Source of the DNA: a virus
Taxonomy: Duplodnaviria > Caudoviricetes
IMG/VR virus record: IMGVR_UViG_3300013121_000023
Location: 1-64,000 of that record
Strand: one strand, 5' to 3'
Length of the DNA: 64,000 nt
The number at the start of each line of letters is the position of its first letter. Within the stretch, counting starts at the first letter, position 1. This document shows, one piece after another, positions 1 to 64,000 of the stretch. Below the pieces are notes generated by a model, which made no database searches, was not told the DNA's origin, and worked only from the letters and a program-made list of their open reading frames with translations. Position numbers and translations under genes: made by a program.

Positions 1-7
1 CGTGAGA

Positions 8-1021
8 TTATCCCTGCTTCGCACGGGAGATCTCTGCCCAGATTGCAGTGTCAATGTTTGGTATTGCTTTCAGTAGTTCACAAAATTTCCTGAACTCCCC
101 CTTTCTGGTATTAAGGTTTGACTGCAATGTGTTGATGAACAGCGCCAGCCATTCTTTGGCGGCTTTTTCGGCCACCCACTTGAATGCGGCTACCCCCTGC
201 TCGGGGCCCGAGGCCCGAATCCCCAGGCCTACTGCCACTGCATATTGTTTACTGGGTTCGTCGTCCTCGGGGAATTGGAGTCTCTCGCCGTTGCCTTGCA
301 GTACCGCATCCAGTGAGATCAATGTTTTGTGCATTTCGCAGAATGCTGAGAATTCTGCGCCGGCCCCTTCCCCTACCGCGTATTCTGGAGAAATGCCCGC
401 CCCCATCAGGGACGATGCCATTTCCCACGATCTCGGAGATGGCCACGCCGCACTGTCGTTTTGGAACGAGTGCAGCAGTGCTGGCTTCCACTTGAGAAAT
501 GGAACGATCATCTCGTTCAGCTTTCTGTTTATCGCATACTCTGCGAACGTGTCTAGATCTGCTTCCACGGCCAAGTGTATGAAGCGATTTGCGAGTGGTG
601 CCGGCATGTCGAACACCGATGCTCGGTCTTCTTTGCGGTTGCCGGCGGCCCAGATGTACCAGCCGTCTGGCACGGCGTAGGAGCCGACGCGGCGATCGAG
701 GATGAGCTGCTGCGCGATGCCCTGTATCGCGGGGGGCGCCATGTTGAGTTCGTCGAGGAAGAGCACGCCCTTGCCCTCGCGCGGCAAGAACTCGGGGGGA
801 TACCAGCGAGAAATGCCGTTTTCGGGTACGGGCAGACCGCGCAGATCGGTGGGAGCGAGCTGGCTGAGGCGCACGTCGATGAACGACAGGCTCGAGGCCT
901 GGGCGATCTGCGAGACGATGCTCGACTTGCCGATGCCGGGGGGGCCCCAAATCATCACCGAGTGCGATATGCGACCAGTCACCACTCGGTTGAGCACGTT
1001 GTAGAGATCCTTGGTATTCAT
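8..1021 (-). CDS. MoxR-like AAA+ ATPase
   Basis: Walker A GPPGIGKS, Walker B LFLDE, AAGN sensor, PLANRF arginine finger, PSPRSW motif; AGGAG RBS upstream. Confidence 0.85.
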   Translation of the reverse strand: MNTKDLYNVLNRVVTGRISHSVMIWGPPGIGKSSIVSQIAQASSLSFIDVRLSQLAPTDLRGLPVPENGISRWYPPEFLPREGKGVLFLDELNMAPPAIQGIAQQLILDRRVGSYAVPDGWYIWAAGNRKEDRASVFDMPAPLANRFIHLAVEADLDTFAEYAINRKLNEMIVPFLKWKPALLHSFQNDSAAWPSPRSWEMASSLMGAGISPEYAVGEGAGAEFSAFCEMHKTLISLDAVLQGNGERLQFPEDDEPSKQYAVAVGLGIRASGPEQGVAAFKWVAEKAAKEWLALFINTLQSNLNTRKGEFRKFCELLKAIPNIDTAIWAEISRAKQG

Positions 1022-1062
1022 AACCTTTCCTTCTCCTTTTTGAGAGACCGCTCTCTTGTTTC

Positions 1063-1263
1063 TTATGACTTTTCTACAGGCATAATGTCTAGGTTTGTTA
1101 CTACAATTTTTCCTGTTTTATTTCCTACGATCGTAAATGTGAGGATTCTGAAATCTAGCAATAGCTTTGTTTCTTTATGTACTATGGTACACACTTCGTT
1201 TGTCCTTGTATATACGACTTTGCTATTTATCTTCAACTTAGCTGCTTCTTGTTTTTCCATCAT
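1063..1263 (-). CDS. hypothetical protein
   Basis: ORF trimmed to the ATG just downstream of a TATAAGAA promoter-like motif. Confidence 0.45.
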   Translation of the reverse strand: MMEKQEAAKLKINSKVVYTRTNEVCTIVHKETKLLLDFRILTFTIVGNKTGKIVVTNLDIMPVEKS

Positions 1264-2720: not shown

Positions 2721-2726
2721 TGTAGG

Positions 2727-3526: not shown

Positions 3527-3799
3527 CCTTGTTTCTATACATATCGTTAGCATGGTTCCTTTTATGCAAAATTCTTTTACAACAAAGCCGCTTTCTTTAG
3601 ATGCCTCAGTGAAATAATTTTTCATGTGCTTTTTTGATTCTTTACCTGGCTTACTGTTTAGAGCACAATAGCATTTGTATCCGTTTTTTGTTGGCAGGCC
3701 TGCGTATATGCCATTGAAGTGACCGCCAGCCCTTCTCAGGGCTTCATAAGCTTCCACAAACACGTCAGCTGGAGTCCTACATGTTTGAAGTTGATTCAT
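3524..3799 (-). CDS. hypothetical protein
   Basis: ORF ends at the terminator; start trimmed to MNQLQ. Confidence 0.5.
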   Translation of the reverse strand: MNQLQTCRTPADVFVEAYEALRRAGGHFNGIYAGLPTKNGYKCYCALNSKPGKESKKHMKNYFTEASKESGFVVKEFCIKGTMLTICIETR

Positions 3800-5622
3800 C
3801 TTACGACGCTCGTTTTTCGGCACTGTCTTACCTCACGGACGGAGCAGACGTACATACTGATGACGCTGACGATGATTCTCAGTGGAAAGAATTTACAGTA
3901 GAAACAACCGAAGACTGGTCTGTTCTACCTAAAAAAAGCAAGGTCATGGAGCTAGCTAGCTATGACCTTACTCCATCTGAATTTACAGAGGCGGCGTTTT
4001 ATTTCACCAGTCATGAGGACGGGTCTCCGGTACCTTTTTCTTTTGAAGGTAGGAAGTACCTAAGACGTGTTTATGACACACCGGCAAGAAAGGTGCTTCT
4101 GTGTTGTGCCCGTCAGGTAGAGAAATCTACAACGATAGGTAACAGGGCAATATCGTATGCGTGCCTTATACCGGGTTTCAAAATACTCTACGTATCTCCG
4201 TCTGCGCTACAAACCAAAACATTCTCTAATGATAGACTGAGAGAGCCCATCGATACCAGTGCGATACTGAAGCAGTATACGACTGGCATGTTGGCCAGAA
4301 ACATATTTGAGAAGCAGTTTGTAAATAGGTCTAAAATAACTCTTAGGTACTCATTTCTGACGGCTGACCGTGTTCGTGGTATACCGTCTTACGCTATTTT
4401 CATAGATGAGATACAGGACATCATATACGACAACATACCGGTTATAGAGCAGAGTGCTGCGCACGCTCCAGCTGAGTACAAGATGTTTCTGTACTCAGGT
4501 ACCCCAAAGACCTTGGACAACACTATAGAAGTGTTGCGCGCCAATCACTCCACCAAAGCGGAGTGGATGGTACCCTGTGATGCCTGCGGTTCTTCATCCG
4601 GTGCCGGTAGATATTGGAATGTTCTTGGGGAGAAGAACATACAGAAGAAAGGTCTTTCTTGTGAGCGCTGTGGGAAGCTCATAAGGGCCGACCATCCTGA
4701 CGCTGTTTGGGCAAATTCTGTAGCTCTGGATGGCAACGAAATACAGTTTGAGAGTTATCGAATACCTCAGCTGATGGTGCCTTGGCGCGCTTGGTCTGAA
4801 ATACTGGGCGATTACCACAGATATCCTAGAGCCCAGTTTTACAACGAGGTATTGGGAATATCATATGAAGACGGTATGAAGCCCATTACGGAGTCAGAGC
4901 TTCGTGAGCTTTGCATACCAACGTTGGAAATAGACGAAGAGAACCTGGACAACTTGCGTCGTAGATTGCTGGGCGGCACCCATGTCTACATGGGTATAGA
5001 CTGGGGCTACGGTCAGGGCTCTTTTACGGTTGTATCCCTTGGCGCTTACATGGAAAACAAGTTCACCGTTTTCTACATGAAGCGCTGCAATAACGAGCTT
5101 CTAGACCTAGAGCTACAGATGAAATTCATCATCGACCTGGCTAGAGCTTTCAATGTCAAATACATAGCGGCTGACTGGGGAGCCGGCTTCGGACAAAATG
5201 ATAAACTAACAAGAACTTTTGGGGCTGATAAGGTATTTAAGTTCCAATACGTAAACAAGCTCAGGAAAAAGCTAGCTGTTGATACTAAGATGGCCATCAT
5301 AAAGATGCATCGCTCTGAGATAATGAGCGACATATTTAGTGCCCTAAAGAGAGCGCAGCTAGCCTTCTTCAACTGGAATTCTTTTAGAACCTTTGCCAGT
5401 GACATACTGAATATATATTCCGAGTATTCGGAAACACAGAGGATGCTTCTGTACAACCACAACCCTAAAAGCCCTGATGATGCTTTTCATAGCATCTTGT
5501 ACTGCTTCATGGGGTCAATGATAGACAGACCTAGGCAGGACATCATAGTTCCGCATAAGGAAGACAAGACGAAAGGCCCAGTACACAATAACCTGTACTC
5601 AGGAAACGTGTACCAGGGCTTA
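3781..5622 (+). CDS. terL: terminase large subunit (TTA-terminated; standard ORF to 5730)
   Basis: Walker A ARQVEKST, Walker B IFIDE, SGTP coupling motif, two CxxC pairs (gpA-like), nuclease GIDWG and PDDAFHS; first TTA at 5620 removes a 105-nt overlap with the convergent gene. Confidence 0.9.
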
Positions 5623-7716: not shown

Positions 7717-8604
7717 ATGCTGAATACAGACGCAATAGACGCCTTTCTGGAAGTTAGTGGTTTGGACAAAACCGCTAGTGCTCTAGATACGGCTAAACAA
7801 CTAGGACACGACGCCGTAGGCGCTATGCGTGCGGGAGTTATCGGCGGTGTTGGAGCCGCCGCCGCCGCAGGTATTCTTTCTGCCGGTGCTACTAGTGCAA
7901 GCGCTCTATACGATGCCGCCACAAAGCATAGAGACTATAAGAATATGATGCAGGCCTTTCCAGATCTGCAACATAGAAATCCAGATGACGTTCAGCGTGC
8001 TTTTACTACTGTCAGGTCTTTTGCTCCGAAGATCACGAAAGACCCTATGACAGCTGGGGCTGCTGTAAATGCTCTACTGCTAGACCCGCAGGCAGCGCAC
8101 GGTTTCGTCGGTGGCTTGACGGACATAGAACGCAAGATACAAAGCCCTGTGCATGAGATGCTTATGCAGGGAAGCTTGCAAGGTATGCGCTCAGGCATGG
8201 AGCATGATTTGTCGTCCAAGAGAGACGAAGCTAGAAGGAAGTTTGATACTTCCATGGCTGACAGGCAGGAAGCCTATCAAGGGTCTCGTGATATAGCTCA
8301 AGCCCTTCTTCAAAGAGAGCGTGACGATCTATCACGAACACACCAAATGGCTATGTCAAATGCACAGCTAGCTCAACAAAAGGAACTATCTCAAGCTCAG
8401 TCGCTTGGTAAGATGTGGTCTGATATAGCACAGATGCAGCATAGAGAGGATATGGCCAGAGACCAGAGGTCAGCGCAAGCAGACCAGCAGGAGGCCAACA
8501 CAAGACTCAGGGCTGCCTTGGATATGCTTTCTAAGCATACTCAAAGTACGGGCGGCAATCTGCACGACCTAGCGCGTAACATACATCGCGGACATGTGCC
8601 GTTA
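7717..8604 (+). CDS. virion (internal/ejection-type) protein (TTA-terminated; standard ORF to 8628)
   Basis: LDKTASA motif, Gly/Ala hydrophobic hairpin, coiled coil; CCG TTA TG overlap with protease ATG. Confidence 0.6.
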
Positions 8605-10286
8605 TGTTCAAATACAGTACATTCATAGGCACAGAAGAACAGCCCGCCTCTATCCCGATATTTGGTCCTAACGAAGACCATTTCGAGAAGACGGCTTCTC
8701 AGCTTGTTATTCTGCCAGCCGTAACTGACTTCATAAAGAAGCTAAAACCTCTTCCTGATTGTCAGTATGTACTGGTTTCGGCTCTGGGCGCGTCTGAGTA
8801 CTACTCGTCTAATGTGAACGGCGATGCCTTCAGTGAAGAGGCTCTTATACACTGCCCAGAAGGTTGGACAGGTAAGCCTCTTATAGACATCGATCTTGCT
8901 CGTGATTGGCCTTATGGGTTTCCTACGTTTTATGGCGGAAACCCATTTGGCTATCATAGGAACAAATCGTCAGACCTATCTTACGGTGGCGTAGAACTAG
9001 CTGTTTGGAACCCTCATATGAAGAGGGTTGAACTTGTGCTCCGCGTAGAGAAAGATAAATGTGTCGCTAGAGGCGGCTCGGGTATATGGGACAAGCTCCT
9101 ACAAGGAGTAGACGTACCTGTATCGATGGGGGCCAAAGTCCCGTGGGATAGGTGCTCCATATGTACAGATATGAAGCTGTACAAAGAAGCGCTCGCTACG
9201 TTTGATAAAAACAAGCACAAGCATCCAGGCATAGCTGTTCTAGAATTTCACAAAAAGCTAAAAGAAAAAAACGGTATCGGTATCAGAGGTATAGCTCCAA
9301 CAAGAAAAGACTACTGCGACCACGCACGCAGTCAGATGAATAAGATTCTGCCCAACGGTAAAAAGGTTTGGGTAGATAATGACTTTCCCAGATTCTTTGA
9401 TATAAGCTTTGTTATCATTCAGGCAGACAAAACAGCTTGGACTCTAGCGCATATAGCAAAAGGTGGAAACAAGACACACTTCTTTATGGGGCTATCAAGC
9501 GATGAGGCTGAAAAGAGAGGTTACGATCAAAGAGCTGATATGTTGCTCGATGTAGACTCTCTTGACAAAACAGCCGCAGATTTGTCTAAACAAGGCGCCA
9601 AGAACAAGTATGCTGAAATCACAAAGCGTGTGCTGCCGAATCCGTTGGCTGCCAAAGCAGCTCCTATCATGGGCAAATCGGAAAAAGATTTGCCGGATTC
9701 AATCATTCGAAAGATAGCCGAGCACAAAGACCTTGATAAAGCTCTGTCTACAGCTGGAAGTGCGGGCATTATATTGAAGCCAAAAGAGTTTCAGCGCGTC
9801 GTACTCATACGTATCGGCGCTGAACCATTGGCTGATGATATGCACAGGTGTTCATGCTGTTTTCATCACAACGATGCTAAGCACAAGATGGACATAGGGC
9901 CGCACAACATAGATGGTCTACTTCGCAGACTACTAGAACCACTCATGGGTATCAGGTCTGCACTAAATCCCCATGTAGATGGTAGGTCTGTAAACATCGT
10001 CCTAAAGGACAGTAGAGAAGTAGAAAAGAAAGCTAGCAGTGTACAAACACCGCTGTTTAACACCATTTCTGCTATGTATAACGGCTATAGAGAAGGTCTA
10101 TTGTCGTTTCTTGACAACGAAGAAAAGCTAGCAGAACATCACGAAACTGAAAAAAGTGCCGGTACCTACTTGTTTTCTCCACTATCTGAGGCGTACTATC
10201 AGTACACCTTCTGGGATGACATACCTGGGAGTGAGCTGGCAGCTATGCCACCGTGGAGAAGGCAACCCCTTCAGGGACCACGATAG
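8604..10286 (+). CDS. prohead (capsid maturation) protease
   Basis: NVNGDAF, GYH, VSMG(+CxxC), FFDISFV..AD motifs typical of phage assemblin-like proteases; lies upstream of scaffold and capsid genes. Confidence 0.7.
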   Translation: MFKYSTFIGTEEQPASIPIFGPNEDHFEKTASQLVILPAVTDFIKKLKPLPDCQYVLVSALGASEYYSSNVNGDAFSEEALIHCPEGWTGKPLIDIDLARDWPYGFPTFYGGNPFGYHRNKSSDLSYGGVELAVWNPHMKRVELVLRVEKDKCVARGGSGIWDKLLQGVDVPVSMGAKVPWDRCSICTDMKLYKEALATFDKNKHKHPGIAVLEFHKKLKEKNGIGIRGIAPTRKDYCDHARSQMNKILPNGKKVWVDNDFPRFFDISFVIIQADKTAWTLAHIAKGGNKTHFFMGLSSDEAEKRGYDQRADMLLDVDSLDKTAADLSKQGAKNKYAEITKRVLPNPLAAKAAPIMGKSEKDLPDSIIRKIAEHKDLDKALSTAGSAGIILKPKEFQRVVLIRIGAEPLADDMHRCSCCFHHNDAKHKMDIGPHNIDGLLRRLLEPLMGIRSALNPHVDGRSVNIVLKDSREVEKKASSVQTPLFNTISAMYNGYREGLLSFLDNEEKLAEHHETEKSAGTYLFSPLSEAYYQYTFWDDIPGSELAAMPPWRRQPLQGPR

Positions 10287-10325: not shown

Positions 10326-11132
10326 ATGACCATGAACCCTTGGTTGGCCGAGTTGCTTGGGGATACAGAGAAGACCGCTCAGCAGGCGCAGGCGCCTGCT
10401 CCCACTCCCGAAGTGGAGAAGAACGCTGAAGCAGAGAAGGTGGCTATGTTCTTGGCCGCCGCTGAAGCCAATAACATCTCCAAAGACCAGATGTTGAAGT
10501 TGGCCCAGGAGAAGCCCGAGTTGGTCAACCAGCTGTGGGAGGCCACTTTTAGCAACGAAGAACAGAAGACTGCCTCGGCTGCTGAAGTAGAGTTGGGGCA
10601 GACCATCGGCAAGATAGCCGCTCAGACATTTGTGGCTGAGTTGCAGAAGACTGCTGCGAAAGACCCTGAGCAGCTAGAGCTGCCGTATTCAAAAGACCCT
10701 TCGGCCTTGAGCAAGGCGAAAGATAAGGCCAAAGAAGTAGGGTCTAAGGCTCTTAAGGCTATTACGGACCATCCCAAGGCTTCGGCTGGAGCTGGCCTTG
10801 CGGGTTTGGCTGCTGGCGGCGCCCTAGCTGCTAAGAGACACTACGATAAGAAGAAGAGCGAGGGCAGTGACGATAAGACAGCGCAGGATGCTGCCGCTGC
10901 TGTTGCTGACCTAAATGAAATCGCTGGCGGTGTTGCCGTAAAGATGGCCGCTGACGCCGGCTTTAACGTTGACGAGGCTATTCTCCGTATTAGCGGTGTT
11001 CTAGCCCTAGGTGGTGCAGCAGTAGACAGCTACGCAAAGACCGCATCTGCCACAGATGGCGACTCGGCTGTTTACATCCGTTCGCTAGAGCTTCTTGAGT
11101 CGGCAGGATATCCTGTTAAGTGGAACGGGTTA
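10326..11132 (+). CDS. scaffold/core-like head protein (TTA-terminated; standard ORF to 11141)
   Basis: About 10 K-x-A motifs, Ala-rich; GAAAGGA RBS. Confidence 0.6.
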
Positions 11133-11159
11133 GTTTCTTAGGTATCTGAGGAGCAGGGC

Positions 11160-12341
11160 ATGTCAAATATCCAGGGTTCTCAATTTTCGAGATATCCAGA
11201 TACTTCTGTAGTTCCTGCTCCTCAGATACCGACCACCCCTGCTACCGGTTTGACTGGTAAGGGGTCTAAATCGATGGGTCTTGCCCCCAGACAAGCAAAT
11301 GCACCTGTAAATACTGGTTTTGCTACCACTGGTACAACACCAGATCCTACAAATGCATTCAAATCTGTTACGGCAGCCATTGATACGGTTTCACCTTTTG
11401 CCAAGACAGGCTCTACGATGAACTTCGCTATGCGACCGTCACTGAACGATATTCTAACTCATGCACTAGCTGGGGCATCGGCGGGCATCAAGCTAGCTGC
11501 TGAGGAAGACAGAAAAGACAAAGACCGCCGAGGCGAGAAGGACAAGGACGATAAAGAGAAGGATGCCTGTGGTCCTGGTATGAAAACGGCTTCTGCCGAA
11601 GATACCCATCTCTTGATCGATGCTGGTCGTTCTTGTGCAGATGGTCTTAGAAAGATCGCTGCTTCGCTAGAAGTTGGTGAAGTCGGTACGGCTAAGAATG
11701 AAGCTGGTACTGTTACTACGCCATCAGCCAGCGGTCAGCAGCCGCAGCCTACTGGGCATAGTGCAGCACATGGTAAAGAGCCCATGTCGCGTACTATGGA
11801 TGCTGGTAAGCAGATGCAGAATACGGAAACAGACAGACCTGGTGGTAATGAGCCCGGTCAGCGCATTTCTGATACGCTGGCTAAGAAGGCGTCTGCTGCT
11901 CCTATTTCGATGATTGCAAAGATGGCCTCCATGAAGGCTCCTATAAGCACCATCTTGAAGATGGCGTCTGGTACAGAGCCTGTTGGTCCCGGTACTGGTG
12001 AACCTGTGAGAGACGGTTCTCAGCCTGCTGGGCCCCATCCTGGCGGAAAGCCTGCTGGAGCTACACATGTTGTAGCTAGCAATCAAGCGGCTGTTGACTA
12101 CACAAAGCGGGATGCGAAAGCACCTGAAAAGAGAGAAGCCGCAAAGACTGTAGATGAGGCTATGCAGAGCGCTTCTACAGACCCAGTTCTAAACCAGGCT
12201 TTTGCCCATACAGGTGAAGCTGGGGCTAAGATAGCGGCTGCTATCATGTCCGGTAAGTCTGTAGACACTGCTATCATGCAGGCAGCGGGCCGAGCTGTTC
12301 TTACCAAGATTGCTGCGGCTCAATCGGGTAGGAGGGCGTTA
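11160..12341 (+). CDS. low-complexity head core/scaffold protein (TTA-terminated; standard ORF to 12368)
   Basis: Repeated KLAA/KTAS/KIAA/KMAS; GGAGG RBS then GCG TTA TG coupling. Confidence 0.6.
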
Positions 12342-12688
12342 TGTCCGACAGCTCAAAGTACATGCTAAAGGTTGCCACTATTGTGGATGAGCTAACCAAC
12401 AGGTTGGAGTCCACAGTAAGCGAAAGAGATAAGCTGGCTGCTGAGTTGGCTTCCTATAAACATAGGGAGCGTATAGAGAAGCTAGCCACAGCTCTGATTG
12501 ATAGAGACATCACATCAGATGCGCGTGAGCAAGTTATTGCGCGGCTTAGCAACGAATCACCTGATAAGCTTGCTAGCATCGAGGCAGGCATAGACTACAT
12601 AAGTCCAAAAATGAATCTGGGTGAGTTGGGCAATCCAGATGCGGGTGCTCTACACCCATTCGAGGCCCAACTACTCGGTCGTCGTTTA
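12341..12688 (+). CDS. coiled-coil scaffolding-like protein (TTA then TAG)
   Basis: Heptad pattern; position just before capsid genes. Confidence 0.6.
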
Positions 12689-12708
12689 TAGGACTATAGG
12701 AGAATCAA

Positions 12709-13236
12709 ATGGCTCAAGTGACTTTCGATCTAGTAACTGACCACTTCCGTCAGTTCATGAAGCACATCCCTCTGGTAGACGGTACTCTGGTAGACCCTAC
12801 CAACGCCGCGTATCTAGAGGGCGGTGAGTGGGTTACACTGGCTAGCTCGGGCAAGGCCGAGAGAGCTTCTAACGTTGCCTCGACTGGCAACGCGGCTACT
12901 CTCAGAAGCTGGCCAGTCTTCCTAGAGCGTGGTCGTACAGACCTCCAGGCGAAGTCGTCGCGCGGTGTACCTGTTTTGTGGACAGGTGGCGAGTTTGAGG
13001 CTTGGACGCTTCTGTTCGACGCTGCTGTCACAGTGGGCAGCGGTGCTCCTATTACGACCATCTTGCAGCCTCTAAAGGTTGCCACAGTTGACCTGACTTC
13101 GACCCTTGGTCGTAAGTACACTGGTCTAGTTGGTCATGGTGGCGCGGCAGACTCGGCACCCATTGTTGGGTACGTGACAATGCTGCCCGCTAACAACAGC
13201 GGTAAACTTCAGTTCATTACTGGTGGCCGACGCTTA
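12709..13236 (+). CDS. capsid decoration/cement-like protein (TTA then TAG)
   Basis: AGGAGA RBS; beta/Gly-rich; directly upstream of the major capsid gene. Confidence 0.55.
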
Positions 13237-13272
13237 TAGCCCGTAGGCACCGAAAGAACAGGAGAAATAGAA

Positions 13273-14415
13273 ATGGCAAACGGGCTGACCCCTCAAGAGA
13301 TACAGCTAATGAACGATAGCTTTTCCGTTCAGGTTGAGACACCTGAAGGTAGAGCTAAATTCGCTGCCAGCGGTGGCGATTGGGTAAGAGACCGTCTTCG
13401 TGAAGACTCGTTTCTAGAGCAGATTGTGCCGATGGTCCCTGTGGTCAAGGCCGATTGTCAGCAGGCTCTAGATCACGACACGCTGGTGAAGATCATAGAG
13501 GTGGAGCCGAAGTCGAGAGCCCTGACTCTAGACTTCCGTTCGGGCCCCACAGTCAATTTCATCAGAGGCAAGCGTGTTGCTGCGGCCTTCTTCACTATCT
13601 CGTCCGAGATGATTCAGAAGACAGAGCAGGAGCTAGCTGCTTACAATATGCCCGTTACCAAGATCATCGAAGAGAACTCGGTGAAGGATATGGGCGAGAT
13701 TCAGGACCGTGAGTTCCTGATCAACTGTGAGGCAGCTGTGCAGGGTCTCCAGAAGGAGGCCAACGGCGGCACGATTACCACCCTAAACGCAACAGCTCTA
13801 CAGGGTGGTTCGCCTCCCGTTGAGTTCTCGGTTGTAAAGGGTGAGCTAGCCCGTGTTGCGTCTGTTGATAACGGGACCGTTTTGCCGATTCAGAGGCCTG
13901 ACTTCGTTAGGCTGATGAACCTGATCGACGGTAATCGTTTGCAGTCGAACATGGTGTTGATCACCACAGTTGACGCGAACAACACTCTTACATGGACCTT
14001 GGCCGACAACGGTGACCGTCTACAGTCGGAAACGGCTGTTGATGGGTATAAGTACAACACCTTCCTCGGCAAGCGCTTCATTAAGACCATCAAGACGGAT
14101 ATTCTCCGTCCTGGTAACGTGTATGCCTTTACGGATTCGTCCTTCTTTGCGAAGGCGTATCTGTTCAACAACACGAAGTTCTATGTTGATAAGCAGGCCA
14201 ACTGGATCACATTCCAGGCCTGGCGCGATGTGGCTATGAGCATCGTGAACGTTGCAGCTGTGCGCAAGCTAGAGCTGTACTCGGGCGATGCGACAACGAA
14301 CGATGCTGACAGCATCTTCTCGTCGATTTCGCCCAAGGAAGAGAAAGATCTGGGCGCGGTCAATAACCGCGTGGCTGAGGGTCTGCGTTATCCTCAGATC
14401 AACCCAGCCTACTTA
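13273..14415 (+). CDS. major capsid protein (TTA-terminated; standard ORF to 14427)
   Basis: About 380 aa, AGGAGA RBS, biased codon use, canonical position after protease/scaffold, followed by a terminator. Confidence 0.8.
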
Positions 14416-15069: not shown

Positions 15070-15570
15070 ATGGCGGCGTACCTTGAAGGCGTACCTTTGA
15101 TGAGCGACACAGTTCGTGGGTTTATAACCTCTGTACGCATGTACATGAGAGATCATCCCGAATTGAACAGGCTTATAAAGGGACAAGAGACCAGCGACAG
15201 AATGATTGCCTTTGCGGCAATGATTGCCCTGTCTCACTTCAATGGTACGCCGCCTGTTTTGGGTGATTTTTCTTACGACTATCTTTTGCCAAGGTACTAC
15301 TACATCCTTCTGCCTCTGACAGTTACAAAGGTGATTGAGTCGGTTGGTCTATTGCAGACCAGAAATCACCTGAACTATTCAGATGGCGGCCAGTCTGTAG
15401 GTGTGAACGATAAAACACCTCTCTTGATGAACTGGCTAAATTACTTTCGTTCTTGGGTCATAGAGGAACTCGGGCGTGTGAAAGTGTCGATGAACATCGA
15501 GCAAGCGATGACTTCTTACGGTGTTCACACAGAACTCTGGTATATCAACGGCCTCTATTTTGGCTACTGA
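15070..15570 (+). CDS. putative head-tail adaptor (neck) protein
   Basis: GGAGG RBS; size, helical pattern and position. Confidence 0.55.
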   Translation: MAAYLEGVPLMSDTVRGFITSVRMYMRDHPELNRLIKGQETSDRMIAFAAMIALSHFNGTPPVLGDFSYDYLLPRYYYILLPLTVTKVIESVGLLQTRNHLNYSDGGQSVGVNDKTPLLMNWLNYFRSWVIEELGRVKVSMNIEQAMTSYGVHTELWYINGLYFGY

Positions 15571-15577
15571 GGTAGTT

Positions 15578-17788
15578 ATGGACCATCTACTAAGACCGCG
15601 TATCAATCCGCTAGCTGCCTTGGAAGCCTTGGTGTTTTTCAAGCAGGCTTCTATCAACGATCCTCCTGACACTACAGGTCGTCTAGAAGGTCAGTTTCTA
15701 GCACCTATCCCAGATGTGTTGGCAGTTATGGCAGAACTCGTGAAGAACGAGTTTATGACTATCTATGCGTACAAAACTTACGCAAACTCTCTGCGTGGCA
15801 TGGCTCACCATTCTTTGGCTGAAGAGTTTGAACAGCACGCAGATGAAGAATCGGACCACGCAGACTTTCTTCTCAGAAGAATGGCCGTTCTAGGTGGACC
15901 CGTAAACGTCCCAGAGATACCTGCCCCACCTCCCGCTACAAAACCAGAAGAGATAGTTCAGACTCTTATTAGAGTTGAACAAGAAGGTATCGCTGGTTGG
16001 CGCCAACTAAAAGAAATGGTTGGCGAAAATAATCCCATGTACGTCACCATAGAAGAGTACATGGCGAAAGAGCAGGAACATCTAGACGATCTATGGCAGC
16101 TCATGCCATATGAAGCTCAAACACAGCAGATATCGAAACAAGCGTCACCACAAACATCTTACGGTAAAAAACTGATAGATTTTTTGGGTGGTGCAGCTGC
16201 GGCCCCGATTGTGCCTGGTATAGTTGGCATGGCTGGCCTTCTTAATAAGATACCAGAGGGTTTGGATGTTCCGCGTCACGTTCTAACCGGCTACGCGGCT
16301 GGATCTCTCGGCATTCCAGCGCTTGGAATGCTTGGCGCCTATAGACACGGTAAGAGCAAGAGAGAAGATGAAGTAAAGGCTCTGCAACTAGAGCTAGACA
16401 ATATGAAGAGGATGCAGGAACAGAATGCACCTTCTTCTATGGCCACCAATGATCAAGGTGGGTTCGAGGGCCAAGGCAGTAACTTGAAGTTCGCTGAAGA
16501 ACAACCGCACGGGAATATCCTAAATAGGATAGGCGGGTTCTTTGGTAGAAATCCCACTGTACTAGGTGCTCTAGCTACAGCTGCTAGTGGCGCACAACTA
16601 GCCAATTCAGCTGTACCCAGAAGTGCCGATTGGCAAACAAAACTGATGGCTACCGTGGGAGGGGCTACGCTGGGAGCTATTACTGGCGCTGCCGCTGCCG
16701 AAGTTAGACAAGGTATGAATGCCACTCAGTTGGCTCGTACCGGATTGAAGGTGGAAACGCCTTTCGGTAGTACTAGCGAAACAGGTAAACATCTGCTTTT
16801 GCAGGGCGCTCGGTCTGCATTCGCAAAAACAGCGAATGAAGATCCTCAACAGTGGCTCCTAAATGAGCGTATGCAAAATGCTCTACAAGAAAGAAACGAA
16901 GTAGAGCTGTATAGAATTCAGAAAGAGCAAGCAGAGCAGCAGGCTGCGCAAGCATCTCAACAGGCGCAAGAGTCAGCTGCACAAGCACAGCAGCTACAGC
17001 AGCAAGTAGAGTCGCATACGCAGCAGATGCAAGGTGTTTTGCAGCAGGCACAGATGCAGCAGCAAATGGCCACACAGAACGTGCAGAGCGCCGTTCAAAT
17101 GGCCAACCAATCTGCCACTGACGCTATGCAAGCCAACCAAAAGGCTCTGCAAACACAGCAGATAGCTGTGAATGCCAGGTCCGCCGTACAAAACATGAGA
17201 CAGGCTCTCATGGATATGGCATCGCAAGATCCGATGGCGGGTATGGAGCAGCAACTACAGGCTGCCGGTCAGCCCGCGATAAGCCCGATGCCTACTGCTG
17301 GCGCAGGTAATCCAGCTGTAGACCCAGCGGCTCTTCAACAGCAACAAGCTCAGGAACAGCAGATGATGGCAGAGCAGCAGGCAGCTCCACAGCAAGGAGC
17401 CGCTAAGACTGCTTCTGTTGAAATTCCTGCTGAACTTAAGGATAAACTGAAAGAAGGACTAAAGGCCGTCATACCCCCTCTTGGTGGAGCTGCTTTTGGT
17501 TTCGCTTTGTCCAAGACTGCTCCCGTATCTCAGAAATTGAGAGAGATGGAAGCTAAATACCAAGAAGAAGGTAGCGGTACCTTGGCAAAGGCTATAGCTA
17601 ACATGGCCAGTGGCCTAGAGGCTATGCAAGCTAATCCCAAGGCAACTGTTATGAGTGGCGTGGGTCTAGGTACTGCTGTCGGTCAACTGCACCGCCAGTA
17701 CAAGGAACATAGGCACTTTGCCGATACGAGTGATAAGGCGTTCAACCTCGCAAATAACCCACCTACAGCCAGTTTCCAGATGAGGTAA
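15578..17788 (+). CDS. virion polyprotein with ferritin/bacterioferritin-like domain
   Basis: E..EESDH..EQEG..EQEH di-iron ligand pattern flanked by KQAS motifs; Gly-zipper segments; Gln-rich coiled coil. Confidence 0.7.
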   Translation: MDHLLRPRINPLAALEALVFFKQASINDPPDTTGRLEGQFLAPIPDVLAVMAELVKNEFMTIYAYKTYANSLRGMAHHSLAEEFEQHADEESDHADFLLRRMAVLGGPVNVPEIPAPPPATKPEEIVQTLIRVEQEGIAGWRQLKEMVGENNPMYVTIEEYMAKEQEHLDDLWQLMPYEAQTQQISKQASPQTSYGKKLIDFLGGAAAAPIVPGIVGMAGLLNKIPEGLDVPRHVLTGYAAGSLGIPALGMLGAYRHGKSKREDEVKALQLELDNMKRMQEQNAPSSMATNDQGGFEGQGSNLKFAEEQPHGNILNRIGGFFGRNPTVLGALATAASGAQLANSAVPRSADWQTKLMATVGGATLGAITGAAAAEVRQGMNATQLARTGLKVETPFGSTSETGKHLLLQGARSAFAKTANEDPQQWLLNERMQNALQERNEVELYRIQKEQAEQQAAQASQQAQESAAQAQQLQQQVESHTQQMQGVLQQAQMQQQMATQNVQSAVQMANQSATDAMQANQKALQTQQIAVNARSAVQNMRQALMDMASQDPMAGMEQQLQAAGQPAISPMPTAGAGNPAVDPAALQQQQAQEQQMMAEQQAAPQQGAAKTASVEIPAELKDKLKEGLKAVIPPLGGAAFGFALSKTAPVSQKLREMEAKYQEEGSGTLAKAIANMASGLEAMQANPKATVMSGVGLGTAVGQLHRQYKEHRHFADTSDKAFNLANNPPTASFQMR

Positions 17789-17790: not shown

Positions 17791-18252
17791 ATGCCGAAGG
17801 TAAACAAGCCCGAGGTGATTTATCCTTCACATGTGTATGCGATTACACCTAGTGGCTATCTTCTTATGAAGAAGGTAGCTGGTAGTACGAAGGTTCTTAC
17901 TACAGCGATGCTGAAGAACGCTTCTGGTAAAAGTAAAAGCATGAAAGTAAACGCAGCTATATCAGCTGTGTCAGAAGTATTGGGGGATGCACCTGATGAG
18001 CTTGTCTACGTAGGCAAAGAGACTGTATGTGTTGGCGAAATTCAGAAAGTGATAACTGGGTTTGTGCTGGGTCTGACGAAGCCGAATCCAGTTATTAACT
18101 GTGAGTGGGTTCCAATGCACTATCTGTACATGCCAGATAGTCCGTTTAAGGTCACCCCTACGTTCAGACAGACGTGGAGCACATTTGGGCCCAGCGTGAT
18201 GGAGCTTGCCCAAATTATACGTCTTAGAAGTGGGACGCACATTTTGGTTTGA
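17791..18252 (+). CDS. hypothetical protein (possibly a degenerate Nudix-like fold)
   Basis: GAGGT RBS; no intact Nudix box. Confidence 0.5.
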   Translation: MPKVNKPEVIYPSHVYAITPSGYLLMKKVAGSTKVLTTAMLKNASGKSKSMKVNAAISAVSEVLGDAPDELVYVGKETVCVGEIQKVITGFVLGLTKPNPVINCEWVPMHYLYMPDSPFKVTPTFRQTWSTFGPSVMELAQIIRLRSGTHILV

Positions 18253-18260
18253 GGTGCAAC

Positions 18261-19640
18261 ATGCTCGACTCATATATGTCTGTTCTTCTAGCTAACGCTA
18301 AGAGGGAACAAGAGCTTGATAAGCTGGCCGCAGAATTGTCCAAGTATCCGATGGACGTTCTGCAAAAGGTTGCAGATAGCAAGCTAGCCCTTTTTTGCGG
18401 TGACACGGATTGGCTAGAAAAGTACAAGAACACGCCTCTCTTGCAGAAAGCCATCGATTTGGCCAAAGCTGAAATCGAACAGGATATGCAAGATGAGAAC
18501 GCCTTTCAGGAAAGTAATCTACGTAGTAATGGCAGGCGACAGATAGAGCTTCAGAAAAGGATGCTGGATATTGAGCTAGCCTCCATGAATCTTCAGCATG
18601 ATGAAGTCCCTGTGTCGCCTGAACAGGTAGCTGGCGACATAAAGCAAGCTAGCGCCACAGCTGCTATCAGAACTGCGCTTCAAAATCCATGGGTTAGGCA
18701 AGCGGCTACAGGGGCACTAACAGGTGGTGTTGGTGCTCTAGCTACTGGTGGCTCCGTACTAGAAGGGGCTGGTATGGGAGCTGTAGGAGGATTGGTGTCT
18801 GGTGGCATAGACCATTTTACAGGTGGCAGCACACCAGCCGTTAAACCGACCCCACAGCCAGCCGGCGCAGCTAAGCCAGCAACAGGTGTTATGCCGGCAG
18901 CTAAACCTGCTACTGGCGCCATGCCTGCCGCGAGACCCCCGACTGGGGCCACGCCAGCTATAAAGAGTCCTACCGGTATGGTTCCAAGTGTAAAGGGCCC
19001 CACTTTGAATTCCGCAGGTATAGGGCCTACACCGCCACCTTCTGCGCCAGCTGTACCAAAAGTAGCTTCGATAGCTGAAAGAATGAAGGTAGCTCTACAT
19101 AAAATGGCAAATCAGCCCGTAGTAGCTGTACCGCCTAGCCAGATAGAGAGCTTTATAAGAAATAACGCAGGTGCTTTGGGAGTCGGTGCTTTGGGCGCTG
19201 GCGCTGGCCTTTACAGTTCTTTGCGTAGGAAAGAAAACCCAGAGGATGAAGACAGTCTTCTGTCTGGTGCTGCAAAGACATTGGGAGGCGGTGCTATCGG
19301 TGCGGCTCTTGGCTACGGTGGACACAAGTATTACAGCGGTATCAAAGAGCTTATGGACAAAGGTATGTCCCCTGGTGAAGCTTTTGATACACATAACAAG
19401 AACCTCTGGGAAGCTGGGTTGAGCAAGGTTACGGACCACGCTTTTGGTCTGAACAACCCCCTACCAAGTCAAGAGCACACATCAGTTGTTAAGCAGCAGG
19501 CACCGCTGCCGTCACAACCTCATCTACCATTTTCTGCTCCGCAGCCATCTGTACATAAGATGCCTGCACAACACGCAGTAGCACCTACTGTTAAGTCTAA
19601 CGTTCTTCAATCTGGTACGAGACATCTGAATATTTGGTTA
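18261..19640 (+). CDS. virion protein with Gly-zippers and Pro-rich repeats (TTA-terminated; fused to next gene in ORF track)
   Basis: K-x-A motifs, ~10-aa AAKPATG(V/A)MP repeats; first TTA at 19638, then ATG at 19653. Confidence 0.65.
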
Positions 19641-19652: not shown

Positions 19653-20534
19653 ATGCTTTCTGTCTATGATTTGAAAGTACGTTCAATGAACGTGGACCTC
19701 CAAGAGGTATCTTGGTGCGTCAAAGAGACTCAGTTGGATGTGCTGGATTACAGCTTCCAGATCTATAGGTCTGAATCTGTAGAGGGCCCATTTGACGCAA
19801 TCTCTGTTCCGTTCAAGGATAAGTACCTGTTCATAGACAGAAACATATTTACTGGCAATAGGTGGAGACAGTACTACTACAAACTAGTAGTAACTAAAGA
19901 GTCCGACTCTACTTCTGTAGAGTTTGGCCCTGTTTCTAGTGAGCCAGACCCAGACCTGTATGCCATGGAAGTTCGCAGTCATGCTCAGCTTCTACTTCAC
20001 GAATTTGCTGGGCGAATCTGCTGGATACTCCCTGTCAGAACATTTGGTCAGCGGTGTTCTTGCTACGACAGGCAAATGAAGGCCAAGAAAAGATCTGGCT
20101 GCATAACCTGTTACGACACAACCTTTGTACGAGGCTATTTGCAACCTATTCAAGTAGCCATACAAATAGACCCATCTGCTAAAAGCGAACAAAAGATGGG
20201 TACTGGTTCTTCTCAGCAGTCGAACACTACCGGTAGAATCGGGTTCTATCCAGCCATAAAACCGGATGATTTGATAGTAGAGAAAGAAAACAGACGTTGG
20301 AAAGTTGTATCGGTGTCACAGACCGAGAAGGCACGCGCCAGAATACGCCAGGAATTTCAGCTACACGAGCTAGTTATGACTGACGTAGAGTTCAAGGCTC
20401 CCCTTGTTCTTGAAGACGCGATAACGGATTTGTTCGTCAGCCCAGAGAGAAACTTCATAAACCCTCACACACTTGAGAGTTTTGAAGAGTCAAACATAGA
20501 GACTGTTATGTCTCTGTTTACAGGTAAAAGATGA
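19653..20534 (+). CDS. neck/head-closure-like protein
   Basis: FN3-like N-terminus, CSC..CxxC, PAIKPDDLIVE..RWKV motif; composition differs from upstream part. Confidence 0.6.
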   Translation: MLSVYDLKVRSMNVDLQEVSWCVKETQLDVLDYSFQIYRSESVEGPFDAISVPFKDKYLFIDRNIFTGNRWRQYYYKLVVTKESDSTSVEFGPVSSEPDPDLYAMEVRSHAQLLLHEFAGRICWILPVRTFGQRCSCYDRQMKAKKRSGCITCYDTTFVRGYLQPIQVAIQIDPSAKSEQKMGTGSSQQSNTTGRIGFYPAIKPDDLIVEKENRRWKVVSVSQTEKARARIRQEFQLHELVMTDVEFKAPLVLEDAITDLFVSPERNFINPHTLESFEESNIETVMSLFTGKR

Positions 20535-28637: not shown

Positions 28638-28736
28638 GGTGACTCCTCGTTTATGTTCTTAAGTTAAGAAACCCATTGTGTTGTCTTTTTCGCGTTTATC
28701 AAATAGATAAAAGCGAAGCAACACAAAAAATCGTAT

Positions 28737-29350: not shown

Positions 29351-29366
29351 GTTGGTTCCCGGTATC

Positions 29367-29660: not shown

Positions 29661-29682
29661 GTAAGCATCGAATACCGATGAC

Positions 29683-43375: not shown

Positions 43376-44049
43376 TGAGTGGTCATATAAATGGTGCTCT
43401 AACTGTCAAAAGGGCCACGGAGGAAGAGAATTATCTCTTTGGTGAAATACTCTCACCGGAAGAGCGAGAGCGTCTAAATGGAAAGATAGAGGCTCTTCAA
43501 AAGCTGTTCTCCCTCGGTGACAAGACCAAGGTTCTGGGTACGTATAGGATTCATCTTATATTTGATGAAGAGCGCTCTATGCATCGCCCATACAGGGGTC
43601 TTGTGACCTTTTGGGTGAGCATGCGTAAGATGGATTCTGGTAGTGCCATGAGCATGTCTATTTGTCCTACAGAAGGTTGTGACAGACCATTTTTTGAGGG
43701 TCCACAAAACGGCGTATATGGATGCCCTAAATGCGGTAAGTCGTACAAGGGTACGCAGGTAAAGGACACCATATTTGCTAGGCTAACTACGCAGAACTGG
43801 GCAGATTTGGTGCTCAAGTGGTTTCTGGCTTTCAATAGCGACGCAGACGTGCAGATTACCTATTCTCCCAAAGATATTAGGGCAGCCACACAGCTAGAGA
43901 TTGCTAAAGACAGAAGGGGAGAAGAGATAAGGAAGGTTCAGAAAGAGATGACTACGCGCGAGTCTATCTTTCCGTTTGGCAGCATAGTCAAGGCTGCTTC
44001 TAATGGGGCGCCTCTACATAGACTCTTTATGAACTACATAAACGCATGA
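43375..44049 (+). CDS. Zn-ribbon-containing protein
   Basis: CPTEGC..CPKC. Confidence 0.6.
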   Translation: MSGHINGALTVKRATEEENYLFGEILSPEERERLNGKIEALQKLFSLGDKTKVLGTYRIHLIFDEERSMHRPYRGLVTFWVSMRKMDSGSAMSMSICPTEGCDRPFFEGPQNGVYGCPKCGKSYKGTQVKDTIFARLTTQNWADLVLKWFLAFNSDADVQITYSPKDIRAATQLEIAKDRRGEEIRKVQKEMTTRESIFPFGSIVKAASNGAPLHRLFMNYINA

Positions 44050-44288
44050 ACGAAGACAAAAAGAAAGCCGCGTATAAGGTTGCTGTGTACGAGGCCGTAA
44101 TGAAGTATCTAGCCAGCAACTACGTAAAGCGCGATGTAACGGCCCCGTTCACACTTATATGTGAAGATGTCATTTACAAAGATCGCGTTGTACCGCAGGA
44201 TACGTTCTTGGAAGTGTTGGCTGTGATTTCTTCGTTGAAAGACCAGTCCAAAAAAGAATACGAAGCGTATGTGGAGATAAAGGAGTAA
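44046..44288 (+). CDS. hypothetical protein
   Basis: ATGA coupling. Confidence 0.55.
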   Translation: MNEDKKKAAYKVAVYEAVMKYLASNYVKRDVTAPFTLICEDVIYKDRVVPQDTFLEVLAVISSLKDQSKKEYEAYVEIKE

Positions 44289-60788: not shown

Positions 60789-60861
60789 AAATACACTCCT
60801 GCGAACATATCACTTGTTAAAGGCTCATAGCTCTTATGTCAAAAAGTGGTAGTATTTGGGC

Positions 60862-63800
60862 ATGTTGGGACCGAATAATGCTGCCGGTATGATCTCATCC
60901 ATGAGCCCTTTGCGCGGTGCTCCCATGGACACTTCGCAGTCGGCTCAAGGCCTCGTAAATGCCGGTATGAGCGGTTTGGCTGCATTTGGCGGACCTGCTT
61001 TGCAGGGAGGTATGGCCCTCATGGGGTTTGACCCACTTACAATGGGTGTAAACGCGGCCATGAGTTCATTTATGGGAGGCGCATCCATATCCAGAGCAGC
61101 TATGGCAGGTATGGGCGCTGGTGCCCTTCCAGGTATGGCCGTGATGGGCGCAACATACGTAGGCGAGAAGATGTATTCAGGTATGCAGCAACAAAACTCC
61201 CTGAATAACACACTTCGAGCAAACTATACCTTTCCAACATCTCGTGGATACGGATTCAGTAGCCAGGATATGTCCCAAATAGGCTCCGATATGAGAGCCA
61301 TGACACATCAATTCGGCCCTCAAGGAGAAATGACCTCCATGAGAGAGCTTACAGCTATAGCCGGTAAGATGGGTCAAATGGGTATGACGACTGGTGTGCG
61401 AGACGCACAGCAGTTCTCGGACAAGCTGAAGAAAACGGTAGACACGCTGAAGCAAGTAGCCACAACACTAAACACTTCACTAGAAGGTGCGCTCGACTTC
61501 GTAAATTCGACCAAATCTTCGGGTATGTTTAGAGCTGCGGACCAAGCAAAGTTCGCATCTACAGCTAGAAACACAGCCGTAGGAGCCGGTGTTGCCATGA
61601 GCGAAGTCACCGCTATGGCAAATATAGGGTCTCAGATATCTAGGTCTGTTGGCGGCTTGGGTAGACAGGGCGCATTCGGCGGAATGCAGGCCATGAACCA
61701 AGTAGGTTCTTCACTTCAATCAGGTGCCATATCTGAAGAGGACGTATACAACGCCACAGGCCTTACAGGCGCAGAAGGTAGACAGGCTCTTGCTACAGGC
61801 ATGATGCAACAGTCGGCAAGATTCTATTCTTCTGGTAGAGGTAGAAGATTCCTCGCCTCCATAGCCGGTAAAGACGGTTCTCTAAATGAACAGGCTGTGG
61901 CTGAGTACATGACTGGCGGCGTAACTACCGGACGTACCATGGAATTGGCACACCAAAACCTAGGTAAGGTAGGTAGAGCTAACTTCATCAGAAACGAAGG
62001 CAGACTTCGTGGCGCTGCCCTTGAGAAATTCGGCGCTCTAGGCCAAACGATGGCTTACAAAGAATGGCTGGAATCAAGGGGATATGACCCAAATGACATG
62101 GATGACAAAGCTATGTTGGCGTTCCAGCGCTTTAGCGGAATGAGCCGAGACGAAGCCGATGTTGCGGTGAAGATGGTCAGCAACCTCCCCCAAACAATGA
62201 GGGAGGAAAGAGAGCGTACACGTAACGATCAGTATCTTCAGAAACAGGCCGCCTATCGTAAAACTCAGGGTATAGAAGGCGCAAAGCTACGATTTCAACA
62301 TGCCAGAGAAAAGATAAACTCCAAGATAGAGTCTGTTGGCCAAGAGGTTTATAACGATCTCACTGGCTACGCAGAGACCCTCATCAATAAGCTCTTGGAC
62401 CAAACCGTTAGCAGAGCCACTGAAGACGTAGATAAGACTTTCAAAGCCGCTTCTATGGGCGGCGCTGGTGGTAAACAACTCTACCAAGCACATTTCGGTG
62501 GCAAGAAGCTAATAGGGGACACAACCACTGCAAAGGGCGGTGTGGGTAGTATGTCCTTTGGCGGCTATGGCAGCACAACTAACCAGATGGAAGGCGGAAG
62601 TATGGGCGCCACGGTTGGTAAGTTTGCTGCGGCTGGAGCTGCCTTCGGTATAGGAGGCATGGCATTGGCTGGAGCCGCTAAGTGGGCTCTTGGCCCTAGT
62701 GGCGCCGATAAATACAAAGAAGCCGGATTTGACCTCAGTGGTGCTACTGGCACTGCTGAGCAGCGTGGCCTGTACTACGAGAAGAGAATGGGCGAGGTTC
62801 AGAAGTTTATAGAATCTGCCCAAAAAGGTGATGATAGACAGTCCATGCAATTCGGTACTCGTGCTGCCGATATGCTCAGGACCGCTTATTCTCAAGGCGG
62901 TACTATAAGCGGTAGTGGTGAGAATAGAGTCGCTGCTTATCAGAAGATGCTTGAGTCCGAAGCTAAAAAGGGAAACAAAGAAGCAGCTGCTGAACTAGAG
63001 AGATTCTCTAAAGCAGATATGGCTGGTCGAGCTGGAATGATGTCAGCTGCCGAGGCTGGTGCCGGTATCAATGAAAAGGCCAGGCTCGCTAATTTTGCAA
63101 AGGCTCCCTCGGCATTTAACGTTGATAGAGGTAAATATTCTAGTCTTGCTGAGGGCGATGAAGCTGTAGGTGAAGCTCTCGGTGTTGGTAGTGCTTCAAG
63201 AGCCAAATATATAGGCGCAGCTGTTGGTGGTGTGGCTGCCGGTATATTCACTCTCGGTGCTGGCTCAGTAATGGGGGCAGCAGCTGGCAGCGCTATAGCT
63301 GAAAAGTACTTTGGCGGTGATGGAGGCAGTACGGCTAGAAGATCAGCCGGTGCATATATGCGTTCTAAGGAAGGCATTTCCATGGCATCCGGTCTCTTTG
63401 CTGCTGACGATAAAGAAAGAATGTCTGCCAGAAAGAGGGCCGAAGAACAAATGGCTGGCTTCGTTGCTGACGAAGAGAAGCACAAGCTATCTGATTCAGA
63501 CCGTGGTCGCATGGAAGCCATGAGATCTATGATGATAGGTAGCTCTTATGCTGAAGCTGTCCGATTGGGTAGGTCTGGAGACATAGATAAGTATGTCGAA
63601 AGCGTAAAGAAGATGGGCGGCAAGTACAAGGATATGTCTCGGGAAGACATAATGGCTCTCGGCCAGAAGTCTTACGAAGCAGGTACTAGTGAGTTGGCGG
63701 CCCAGCAGCGAGAAGAACATGCTGCTATGATAGGCCGTGTAAAGTCAGATGCCGCTGGTGATATAAAGAGCCTCACTGGTACCGGACTACTTACTAGAGA

Positions 63801-64000
63801 TGAAAAGACAGGCAGACTCAGCGTTTCTGCCGCCAGAATGAAGGGAGCTAGTGCAGGCACAGCTTATTTGGCATCTTATTTGGCTGAGGGACTTGAAGCA
63901 GGTGAACGCGGCGATTTGGAAGGTGTCTACAAGACTGGTGGTAGAGAGTACAAACAGCTAATGAAGATGTCTGCCGCCGATAAAAGAGATGCCGCTAGAA
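60862..64000 (+). CDS. tape-measure-like protein (partial, runs off window; absent from ORF track)
   Basis: Stop-free frame of more than 1040 codons from ATG 60862; Gly/Ala/Met-rich helical repeats; no in-frame TTA found. Confidence 0.75.
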   Translation, partial: MLGPNNAAGMISSMSPLRGAPMDTSQSAQGLVNAGMSGLAAFGGPALQGGMALMGFDPLTMGVNAAMSSFMGGASISRAAMAGMGAGALPGMAVMGATYVGEKMYSGMQQQNSLNNTLRANYTFPTSRGYGFSSQDMSQIGSDMRAMTHQFGPQGEMTSMRELTAIAGKMGQMGMTTGVRDAQQFSDKLKKTVDTLKQVATTLNTSLEGALDFVNSTKSSGMFRAADQAKFASTARNTAVGAGVAMSEVTAMANIGSQISRSVGGLGRQGAFGGMQAMNQVGSSLQSGAISEEDVYNATGLTGAEGRQALATGMMQQSARFYSSGRGRRFLASIAGKDGSLNEQAVAEYMTGGVTTGRTMELAHQNLGKVGRANFIRNEGRLRGAALEKFGALGQTMAYKEWLESRGYDPNDMDDKAMLAFQRFSGMSRDEADVAVKMVSNLPQTMREERERTRNDQYLQKQAAYRKTQGIEGAKLRFQHAREKINSKIESVGQEVYNDLTGYAETLINKLLDQTVSRATEDVDKTFKAASMGGAGGKQLYQAHFGGKKLIGDTTTAKGGVGSMSFGGYGSTTNQMEGGSMGATVGKFAAAGAAFGIGGMALAGAAKWALGPSGADKYKEAGFDLSGATGTAEQRGLYYEKRMGEVQKFIESAQKGDDRQSMQFGTRAADMLRTAYSQGGTISGSGENRVAAYQKMLESEAKKGNKEAAAELERFSKADMAGRAGMMSAAEAGAGINEKARLANFAKAPSAFNVDRGKYSSLAEGDEAVGEALGVGSASRAKYIGAAVGGVAAGIFTLGAGSVMGAAAGSAIAEKYFGGDGGSTARRSAGAYMRSKEGISMASGLFAADDKERMSARKRAEEQMAGFVADEEKHKLSDSDRGRMEAMRSMMIGSSYAEAVRLGRSGDIDKYVESVKKMGGKYKDMSREDIMALGQKSYEAGTSELAAQQREEHAAMIGRVKSDAAGDIKSLTGTGLLTRDEKTGRLSVSAARMKGASAGTAYLASYLAEGLEAGERGDLEGVYKTGGREYKQLMKMSAADKRDAAR

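Follow-up and report, generated by a model that had tools for sequence, protein, structure and literature searches.

The only published changes of a sense codon to a stop codon come from mitochondria and plastids, in which readers of a modified RF2 or RF1 type are supposed. UUA is a stop in labyrinthulean (Thraustochytrium) mitochondria and in peDinoflagellate plastids, with RF2-type release factors in which the invariant Ser204 is replaced by Ala, Gly, or Cys, and both UUA and UUG (UUR) are stops in the mitochondria of Marsupiomonadales and Pseudoscourfieldia, with an altered mtRF1a (PMC12574857). In Streptomyces UUA is a hungry codon, at which bypassing, frameshifting, and drop-off with Pth have been discussed, and UUA-dependent bypassing occurs in the terminase of phage phiHau3 (PMC10732093). 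Here we consider how translation may be terminated at UUA in a tailed phage (Duplodnaviria; Caudoviricetes; IMG/VR record IMGVR_UViG_3300013121_000023) in which TTA closes about 30% of the genes at a GC content of 46%. The window, by which we mean the whole stretch of DNA analyzed, comprises bases 1–64,000 of this 177,132 bp record, which has direct terminal repeats and a completeness rating of 100%; positions given as genome coordinates lie outside it.

The phage resembles the organelles with RF2-type readers in that UUA is found at gene ends only, there is no cognate tRNA gene, UUG remains leucine, and translation is of the bacterial type. It differs in that the nucleus-encoded RF2 of the organelles can be inspected, whereas the phage has no release factor gene and no altered RF2 was found. 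Like Marsupiomonadales and Pseudoscourfieldia it shows a leucine-to-stop change, which there is effected by a modified bacterial-type release factor, but in those mitochondria UUG is also a stop (RF1-type third-base reading) whereas TTG is an abundant sense codon in the phage. Stop-codon-recoded phages (crAss-like and Lak phages, with TAG or TGA as an amino acid) carry suppressor tRNAs and sometimes release factors. The present phage shares with them a non-standard code and a suppressor tRNA with a CUA anticodon, but the change here is in the sense-to-stop direction, no phage-borne factor explains it, and reading TAG or TGA as sense brings no gain in coding density (0.931 and 0.917, respectively, versus 0.936 under code 11). 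As with Streptomyces bldA and phiHau3, the UUA decoder can be missing and phages exploit that; in Streptomyces, however, hosts with ~70% GC use UUA rarely, as a regulated sense codon or as a take-off site in few genes, rather than as the closing codon of nearly a third of the genes.

In a literature search, no description of a UUA stop turned up for any phage or bacterium. The present analysis adds a whole-genome negative for termination machinery, tests of how the TTA stops behave, a patchy distribution of the trait among relatives, and negative hunts for RF2 variants. The answer is neither a recognizable phage gene nor rescue of the transfer-messenger RNA (tmRNA) type, nor is it slippage by +1 to a stop that overlaps the UUA. 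We tentatively favor, as a reading that is credible but well short of secure, host-supplied release at a UUA that has no decoder, most likely by an RF2-type factor.

That TTA is used as a stop was the premise of the original prediction, and it holds: TTA acts like a true stop, as seen in its clustering at gene ends, in the stop positions of homologues, and in an unchanged coding density. In-frame TTA is depleted approximately tenfold. Greedy code-11 open reading frames (ORFs) across the genome contain 144 TTAs in frame, whereas one of the remaining frames has 1033 and the other 467; TTG (1092) and CTA (1119) are common in frame in the same ORFs. The in-frame TTAs that do occur in code-11 ORFs of at least 150 amino acids (aa) are concentrated at the 3′ ends, with 37 of 79 (47%) lying within the last 15 codons where 4.2% is expected (binomial p 9e-30; the runner-up among the codons is at 8.4%); in the window the corresponding figure is 17 of 31. 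Coding density does not change when TTA is added as a stop (0.936 versus 0.937). With this four-stop code the gene ends genome-wide are 65 TTA, 75 TGA, 51 TAA, and 28 TAG, such that all of the standard stops remain in use, and TTA closes 29 of the 91 window ORFs. The TTAs are absent from conserved in-frame positions, as in a code like NCBI table 23, and are found where homologues have standard stops (the terminase, the genes at 10326, 12709, 13273, and genome coordinate 167223, and others). Cross-genome alignments include 25 phage TTAs, and each of these is in an antisense frame of a longer gene, precedes the start of the RNA polymerase, or marks the gene junction at 24958, where a relative has a stop. 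The principal TTA-ended genes and junctions in the window are the following.

3781–5622, plus strand: terminase large subunit (Pfam GpA_ATPase); last sense codons YQG, then TTA at 5620–5622.
10326–14415, plus strand: five consecutive virion-module genes on the gene map, all TTA-ended.
10326–11132, 11160–12341, 12341–12688, 12709–13236, and 13273–14415, plus strand: the members of this five-gene run.
12339–12343, plus strand: TTATG stop-start overlap, joining the TTA of 11160–12341 to the ATG of 12341–12688.
39148–39152, 39822–39826, 41864–41868, and 43373–43377: further TTATG overlaps.
19638–19640, plus strand: TTA separating genes 18249–19640 and 19653–20534, which form a single 761-aa ORF in code 11.
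24958–24960, plus strand: TTA separating genes 21850–24960 and 24997–25764; a stop codon of the related contig G004 aligns to this TTA.
28014–33495, minus strand: block of small genes with TTA stops outside the virion module (28014–28637, 30026–30667, and 32302–33495).

In nine related loci a TAA or TAG occupies precisely the position of the terminase TTA, the eight relatives in the terminase alignment all end in QG, and the 36-codon tail that code 11 would add (to 5730) has no counterpart in the relatives. For three members of the five-gene run (10326–11132, 12709–13236, and 13273–14415) the stops of the relatives lie 0–2 codons from the TTA. The product of 13273–14412 matches (E 1e-17) a protein of Salmonella phage Arash that is annotated as the major capsid protein; the product has no PDB or PHROG match, and its AlphaFold model has a confidence score (pLDDT) of 32. 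TTA ends are present in every 15-kb bin of the genome, and this spread together with the minus-strand block indicates that TTA stops are not limited to late genes. Such tails, and false gene fusions, are present in databases. Terminase ORFs of ~970–1050 aa are seen in some relatives (L018:9881–13021, L021, and L022); these are ~400 codons longer and match in pieces, which suggests that they may contain inteins or other insertions.

The TTA stops behave much like ordinary ones. The next in-frame standard stop is a median of 9.5 codons past TTA ends and 10 codons past ordinary stops, and selection for back-up stops behind TTA is absent. TTATG overlaps, in which the stop shares its last base with the next start, occur at 14 of the 65 TTA ends genome-wide, whereas TAATG is found at 2 of the 51 TAA ends (Fisher p 0.006); the number of TTATG overlaps is comparable to that of ATGA overlaps for TGA (28). 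TTATG is thus ~7 times more frequent than TAATG despite similar numbers of TTA and TAA gene ends. With no extra back-up stops, with TTATG overlaps, and with TTA stops in all modules, the pattern resembles orderly release by a factor, in which the mRNA stays whole and re-initiation is possible, rather than stalling with cleavage and tagging.

We searched for termination and rescue machinery in six frames over the whole record with profile hidden Markov models (HMMs; E≤10), and control genomes were matched in each search. There are no matches to the RF-1/GGQ domain (PF00472; RF1, RF2, and ArfB), to the PCRF codon-recognition domain (PF03462), or to eRF1_2 (PF03464; eRF1, aRF1, and Pelota-like proteins), the last of which is also absent from Pfam scans of all ORFs. 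ArfA (PF03889) likewise gives no match, although this is a short profile and divergent analogues would be missed. ARAGORN reports no tRNA or tmRNA in the window, and no tmRNA in the genome; the same method detects tmRNAs in two relatives (G002 and G003). Rfam reports no family at gathering score in the window, and no tmRNA either over the window and 64–101 kb at gathering score or over 98–152 kb at E≤1. NCBIfam matches nothing translation-related among the window ORFs. The original prediction had recognized no tRNA and no release-factor-like ORF in the window, and ARAGORN, Rfam, the six-frame HMM searches, Pfam, and NCBIfam all uphold this. Since the genome is complete, its first option, a variant release factor encoded elsewhere in the phage genome, could be evaluated in full, and with no RF1-, RF2-, ArfB-, or eRF1-like domain it appears close to refuted for recognizable homologues.

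Pfam scans of all 219 ORFs in the genome reveal no anticodon-nuclease, RNA-ligase, or rescue family, and the only termination-linked match is a PTH2 domain (genome coordinates 113083–113382). A homologue of this Pth2 is present in the standard-code relative G002 and none is found in the examined part of G004, which has the TTA-stop trait, so that Pth2 is not specific to the trait. When the Pth2 was considered together with an upstream domain, read through a TAG, a search returned only the phage's own protein. The GGQ tripeptide is present in six ORFs; one of these, a 244-aa protein encoded beside Pth2, was rejected as a release factor because its homologues delete the motif. With no recognizable phage machinery, UUA must be read either by the host termination apparatus or by a phage factor of an unrecognized kind.

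The phage does encode tRNAs. ARAGORN identifies ten in the genome, at 123–126 kb and 135 kb: Lys-UUU, Val-UAC, Met, Thr-UGU, Ile-UAU, Arg-UCU, Leu-CAA, Leu-UAG, Tyr, and the suppressor with the CUA anticodon. These serve UUG (Leu-CAA), CUA (Leu-UAG), and heavily used A-ending codons, and UUA is left without a decoder. There is no tRNA-Leu(UAA) gene in the genome, nor does one appear in the tRNA cluster at relaxed ARAGORN thresholds. The sole low-threshold match with a TAA anticodon falls within an ORF (82.9 kb), and Rfam has no match there. ATA is the commonest isoleucine codon (1951, versus 694 ATC and 678 ATT); tRNA-Ile(UAU) is encoded at genome coordinates 125083–125155, and the tRNA set fits the favored A-ending codons. 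The amber suppressor tRNA is encoded on the minus strand at genome coordinates 135413–135485. TAG is the least used stop (13%) and still closes 28 ORFs despite the suppressor. A dCTP-deaminase-like gene (genome coordinates 135521–136186, minus strand) adjoins the suppressor tRNA; it is present in G004 and undetected in G001, G002, and G003.

Relatives of the phage differ in how they use TTA. A 168-kb Logan contig (52% GC), many of whose proteins are 50–97% identical to those of the phage, has the TTA-stop trait. So does G004 (60% GC), represented by a 107-kb portion, in which the terminase ends QG-TTA, 19 of 113 ORFs close with TTA, and coding density is unchanged with TTA as a stop; there are no tRNA genes in this portion. 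G001, G002, and G003, in contrast, have TTA at conserved leucine positions, and the trait can therefore differ between close phages. None of G001–G004 encodes an RF-1 domain. In a terminase tree the phage pairs with a contig that uses TTA as sense and G004 pairs with another lineage, such that the trait is not monophyletic and requires at least two changes, with possible recombination of the terminase gene as a caveat. The recurrence of the trait in relatives of 52% and 60% GC, and the minimum of two changes, would be simpler to account for if the phages had different hosts than if they carried a complex system of their own.

These observations lead to the favored reading. The phage would bring no UUA termination machinery of its own, and the infected cell would have no UUA decoder, as the phage provides tRNA-Leu(CAA) and tRNA-Leu(UAG) and none for UUA. 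The host apparatus would then free the peptide at UUA, the most likely agent being a bacterial RF2-type class-I release factor that tolerates U at the second codon position, with the outcome that UAA, UGA, and UUA would be stops and UUG would stay leucine. That TTA is affected and TTG is not (third base A only) makes an RF2-type reader the best fit. Use of this code by the host itself, the third option of the original prediction, would fit best, given that the trait is patchily distributed among relatives and that altered RF2 has precedents in organelles. We infer that tRNA-Leu(UAA) is missing from the host, or goes unused there, and that an RF2-type factor is the reader.

Several observations weigh against this reading. 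The support comes from phage-side data. The sister phage G001, which has no tRNA genes, uses TTA as leucine (229 in frame, at conserved positions), and sister phages of this type indicate that some hosts of the phage group decode UUA. When RF2 with the motif serine replaced by Ala or Gly was sought with a DNA pattern, the matches were four metagenome contigs only, and a stricter form of the pattern had no matches in 2.9 million viral contigs. All four metagenome contigs (L068, L069, L070, and L071) read 'APFD', with APF replacing the invariant SPF, and at least three of them have TTA inside conserved genes (RNase E, PBP1A, lysS, or RF2); either the APF substitution alone does not make TTA a stop in at least three organisms, or these apparent variants are sequencing errors. 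With a Cys-variant profile, 8000 RF2s were scored and the best 120 include no 'CPF'. The hunts for Ala, Gly, and Cys variants are thus negative and yield no candidate host factor. A literature search found no free-living bacterium with a UUA-stop code. About three-quarters of the phage ORFs have no family assignment, and a novel phage factor could hide among them.

Hints as to the host are weak. The only cultured kin infect Salmonella and Vibrio, and a scan of genome contigs gave one match of 4.3 kb, binned with a Burkholderiales metagenome-assembled genome; that contig itself reads TTA as leucine. Two standard-code relatives, the G002/G003 pair (loci L057 and L062), encode tmRNAs.

G002, 117402–117751, minus strand: one-piece tmRNA, tag ANDNATAALPIAA, closed by TGA.
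G003, 8522–8890, plus strand: one-piece tmRNA, tag ANDNANQAAA, closed by TAA.

Proteobacterial or myxobacterial lineages typically have tags of this ANDN kind. G002 also has a tRNA-like gene (L032:1500–1575, minus strand) to which ARAGORN assigns a four-base anticodon (gcaa), located beside tRNA-Val(AAC).

If host release is correct, there would be free-living bacteria with a four-stop code that standard annotation has overlooked; if not, there would be a novel phage route to release. Either possibility would change the calling of phage and host genes, would add a new barrier to host range, and would offer a naturally occurring system in which to study second-base discrimination by release factors.

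Such a phage route, via a factor of an unrecognized kind, is doubtful but deserves some weight. It might be an ORFan protein (one without family assignment) or an RNA that releases at UUA, a recruiter of a host release factor to ribosomes stalled at UUA, or a covalent modifier of host RF2 or of tRNA-Leu(UAA). Most ORFs lack a match in Pfam, PHROG, or NCBIfam, and the reading of TTA as leucine in sister phages shows variation of the trait between close phages. Known adaptors that recruit release factors are small and mutually non-homologous, and ArfA, ArfT, and BrfA are unrelated small proteins that bring RF2 to stalled ribosomes. The genes shared with G004 and undetected in the three standard-code relatives are the dCTP-deaminase-like gene and small ORFans only, in a comparison that is underpowered with one incomplete TTA-stop relative and three standard-code relatives, and in which the sharing may be chance. 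The ORFans are as follows.

31463–31807, minus strand: ORFan of 114 aa; homologue in G004, undetected in the three standard-code relatives; no Pfam family.
44046–44288: ORFan of 80 aa; homologue in G004, undetected in the three standard-code relatives.
Genome coordinates 107338–107712: small ORFan; homologue in G004, undetected in the three standard-code relatives.

The two within the window are weak candidates for unknown factors, and none has any release-factor feature. The minimum of two changes on the terminase tree also speaks against a phage-borne factor, as does the occurrence of TTA stops outside the late module, with no gene keeping internal TTAs for an early phase. The more specific proposal, that a phage factor unrelated to known release and rescue factors, such as an RF2 adaptor or an RF2-retuning enzyme, performs or triggers release at UUA, we consider unlikely; if true, the phage itself would switch the cell to a four-stop code.

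The second option of the original prediction, a hungry UUA resolved by codon-independent rescue, is quite improbable. In this scheme tRNA-Leu(UAA) would be absent or destroyed, and the peptide would be freed by ArfA, ArfB, or tmRNA after mRNA cleavage, or by drop-off with Pth or Pth2. The missing tRNA-Leu(UAA) gene is the part of that option that stands; no anticodon nuclease, ArfA, ArfB, or tmRNA is recognizable, and rescue fits poorly. The tmRNA-SmpB, ArfA-RF2, and ArfB systems release peptides without an A-site stop, on truncated mRNAs, and tmRNA tags its products for degradation. Tagging would doom the terminase, the major capsid homologue, and ~30% of the phage products, and the need for a cut mRNA clashes with five consecutive TTA-ended genes in an operon and with the coupling of stop and start in 14 TTATG overlaps. 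The tmRNAs of the G002/G003 pair suggest that stalling is relevant in the phage group, and the phage does encode a PTH2-domain protein, but the occurrence of Pth2 does not track the trait. For UUA in Streptomyces, drop-off with Pth is among the routes that have been considered (PMC10732093).

In indirect termination, a ribosome at a slow UUA would hop, or would slip by +1 to a UAA or UAG that overlaps it (U-UAA or U-UAG), and an ordinary factor would then act. The idea has been raised for Streptomyces adpA leaders in which A or G comes after UUA (PMC10732093), but as a general route here it is very improbable, since only 32% of the TTA ends are followed by A or G (48–57% after ordinary stops) and 68% are followed by T or C (52% by T alone), with no overlapping +1 stop. 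A divergent RF1 or RF2 homologue elsewhere in the genome, of the kind that recoded phages carry, is scarcely credible given the empty release-factor and eRF1_2 searches of a complete genome, and the lack of an RF-1 domain in G001–G004 and of Ala/Gly RF2 variants among the viral contigs.

Other features of the genome are of note. Pfam matches among all 92 window ORFs comprise no translation factor, but only an AAA ATPase, the terminase, a ferritin-like domain, sigma-70 regions, a papain-like peptidase, GroES, a dNMP kinase, and similar families, and ten virion-module genes have no PHROG matches. A block of six ORFans beside the tRNA cluster (genome coordinates 126351–130337, minus strand) is 63–97% identical in protein sequence to the 168-kb relative, with four of the six at 76–97%, whereas most other shared proteins are ~30–55% identical; none of these ORFans has a Pfam family, and the high identities suggest either recent exchange or strong constraint. 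The virion module includes a 755-aa protein (15521–17788, plus strand) with a ferritin/rubrerythrin-like domain (E 1e-17). At 30660–31475 on the minus strand there is a papain-family (C1) cysteine peptidase, a member of a large and mostly viral family, that is common to G004 and G002.

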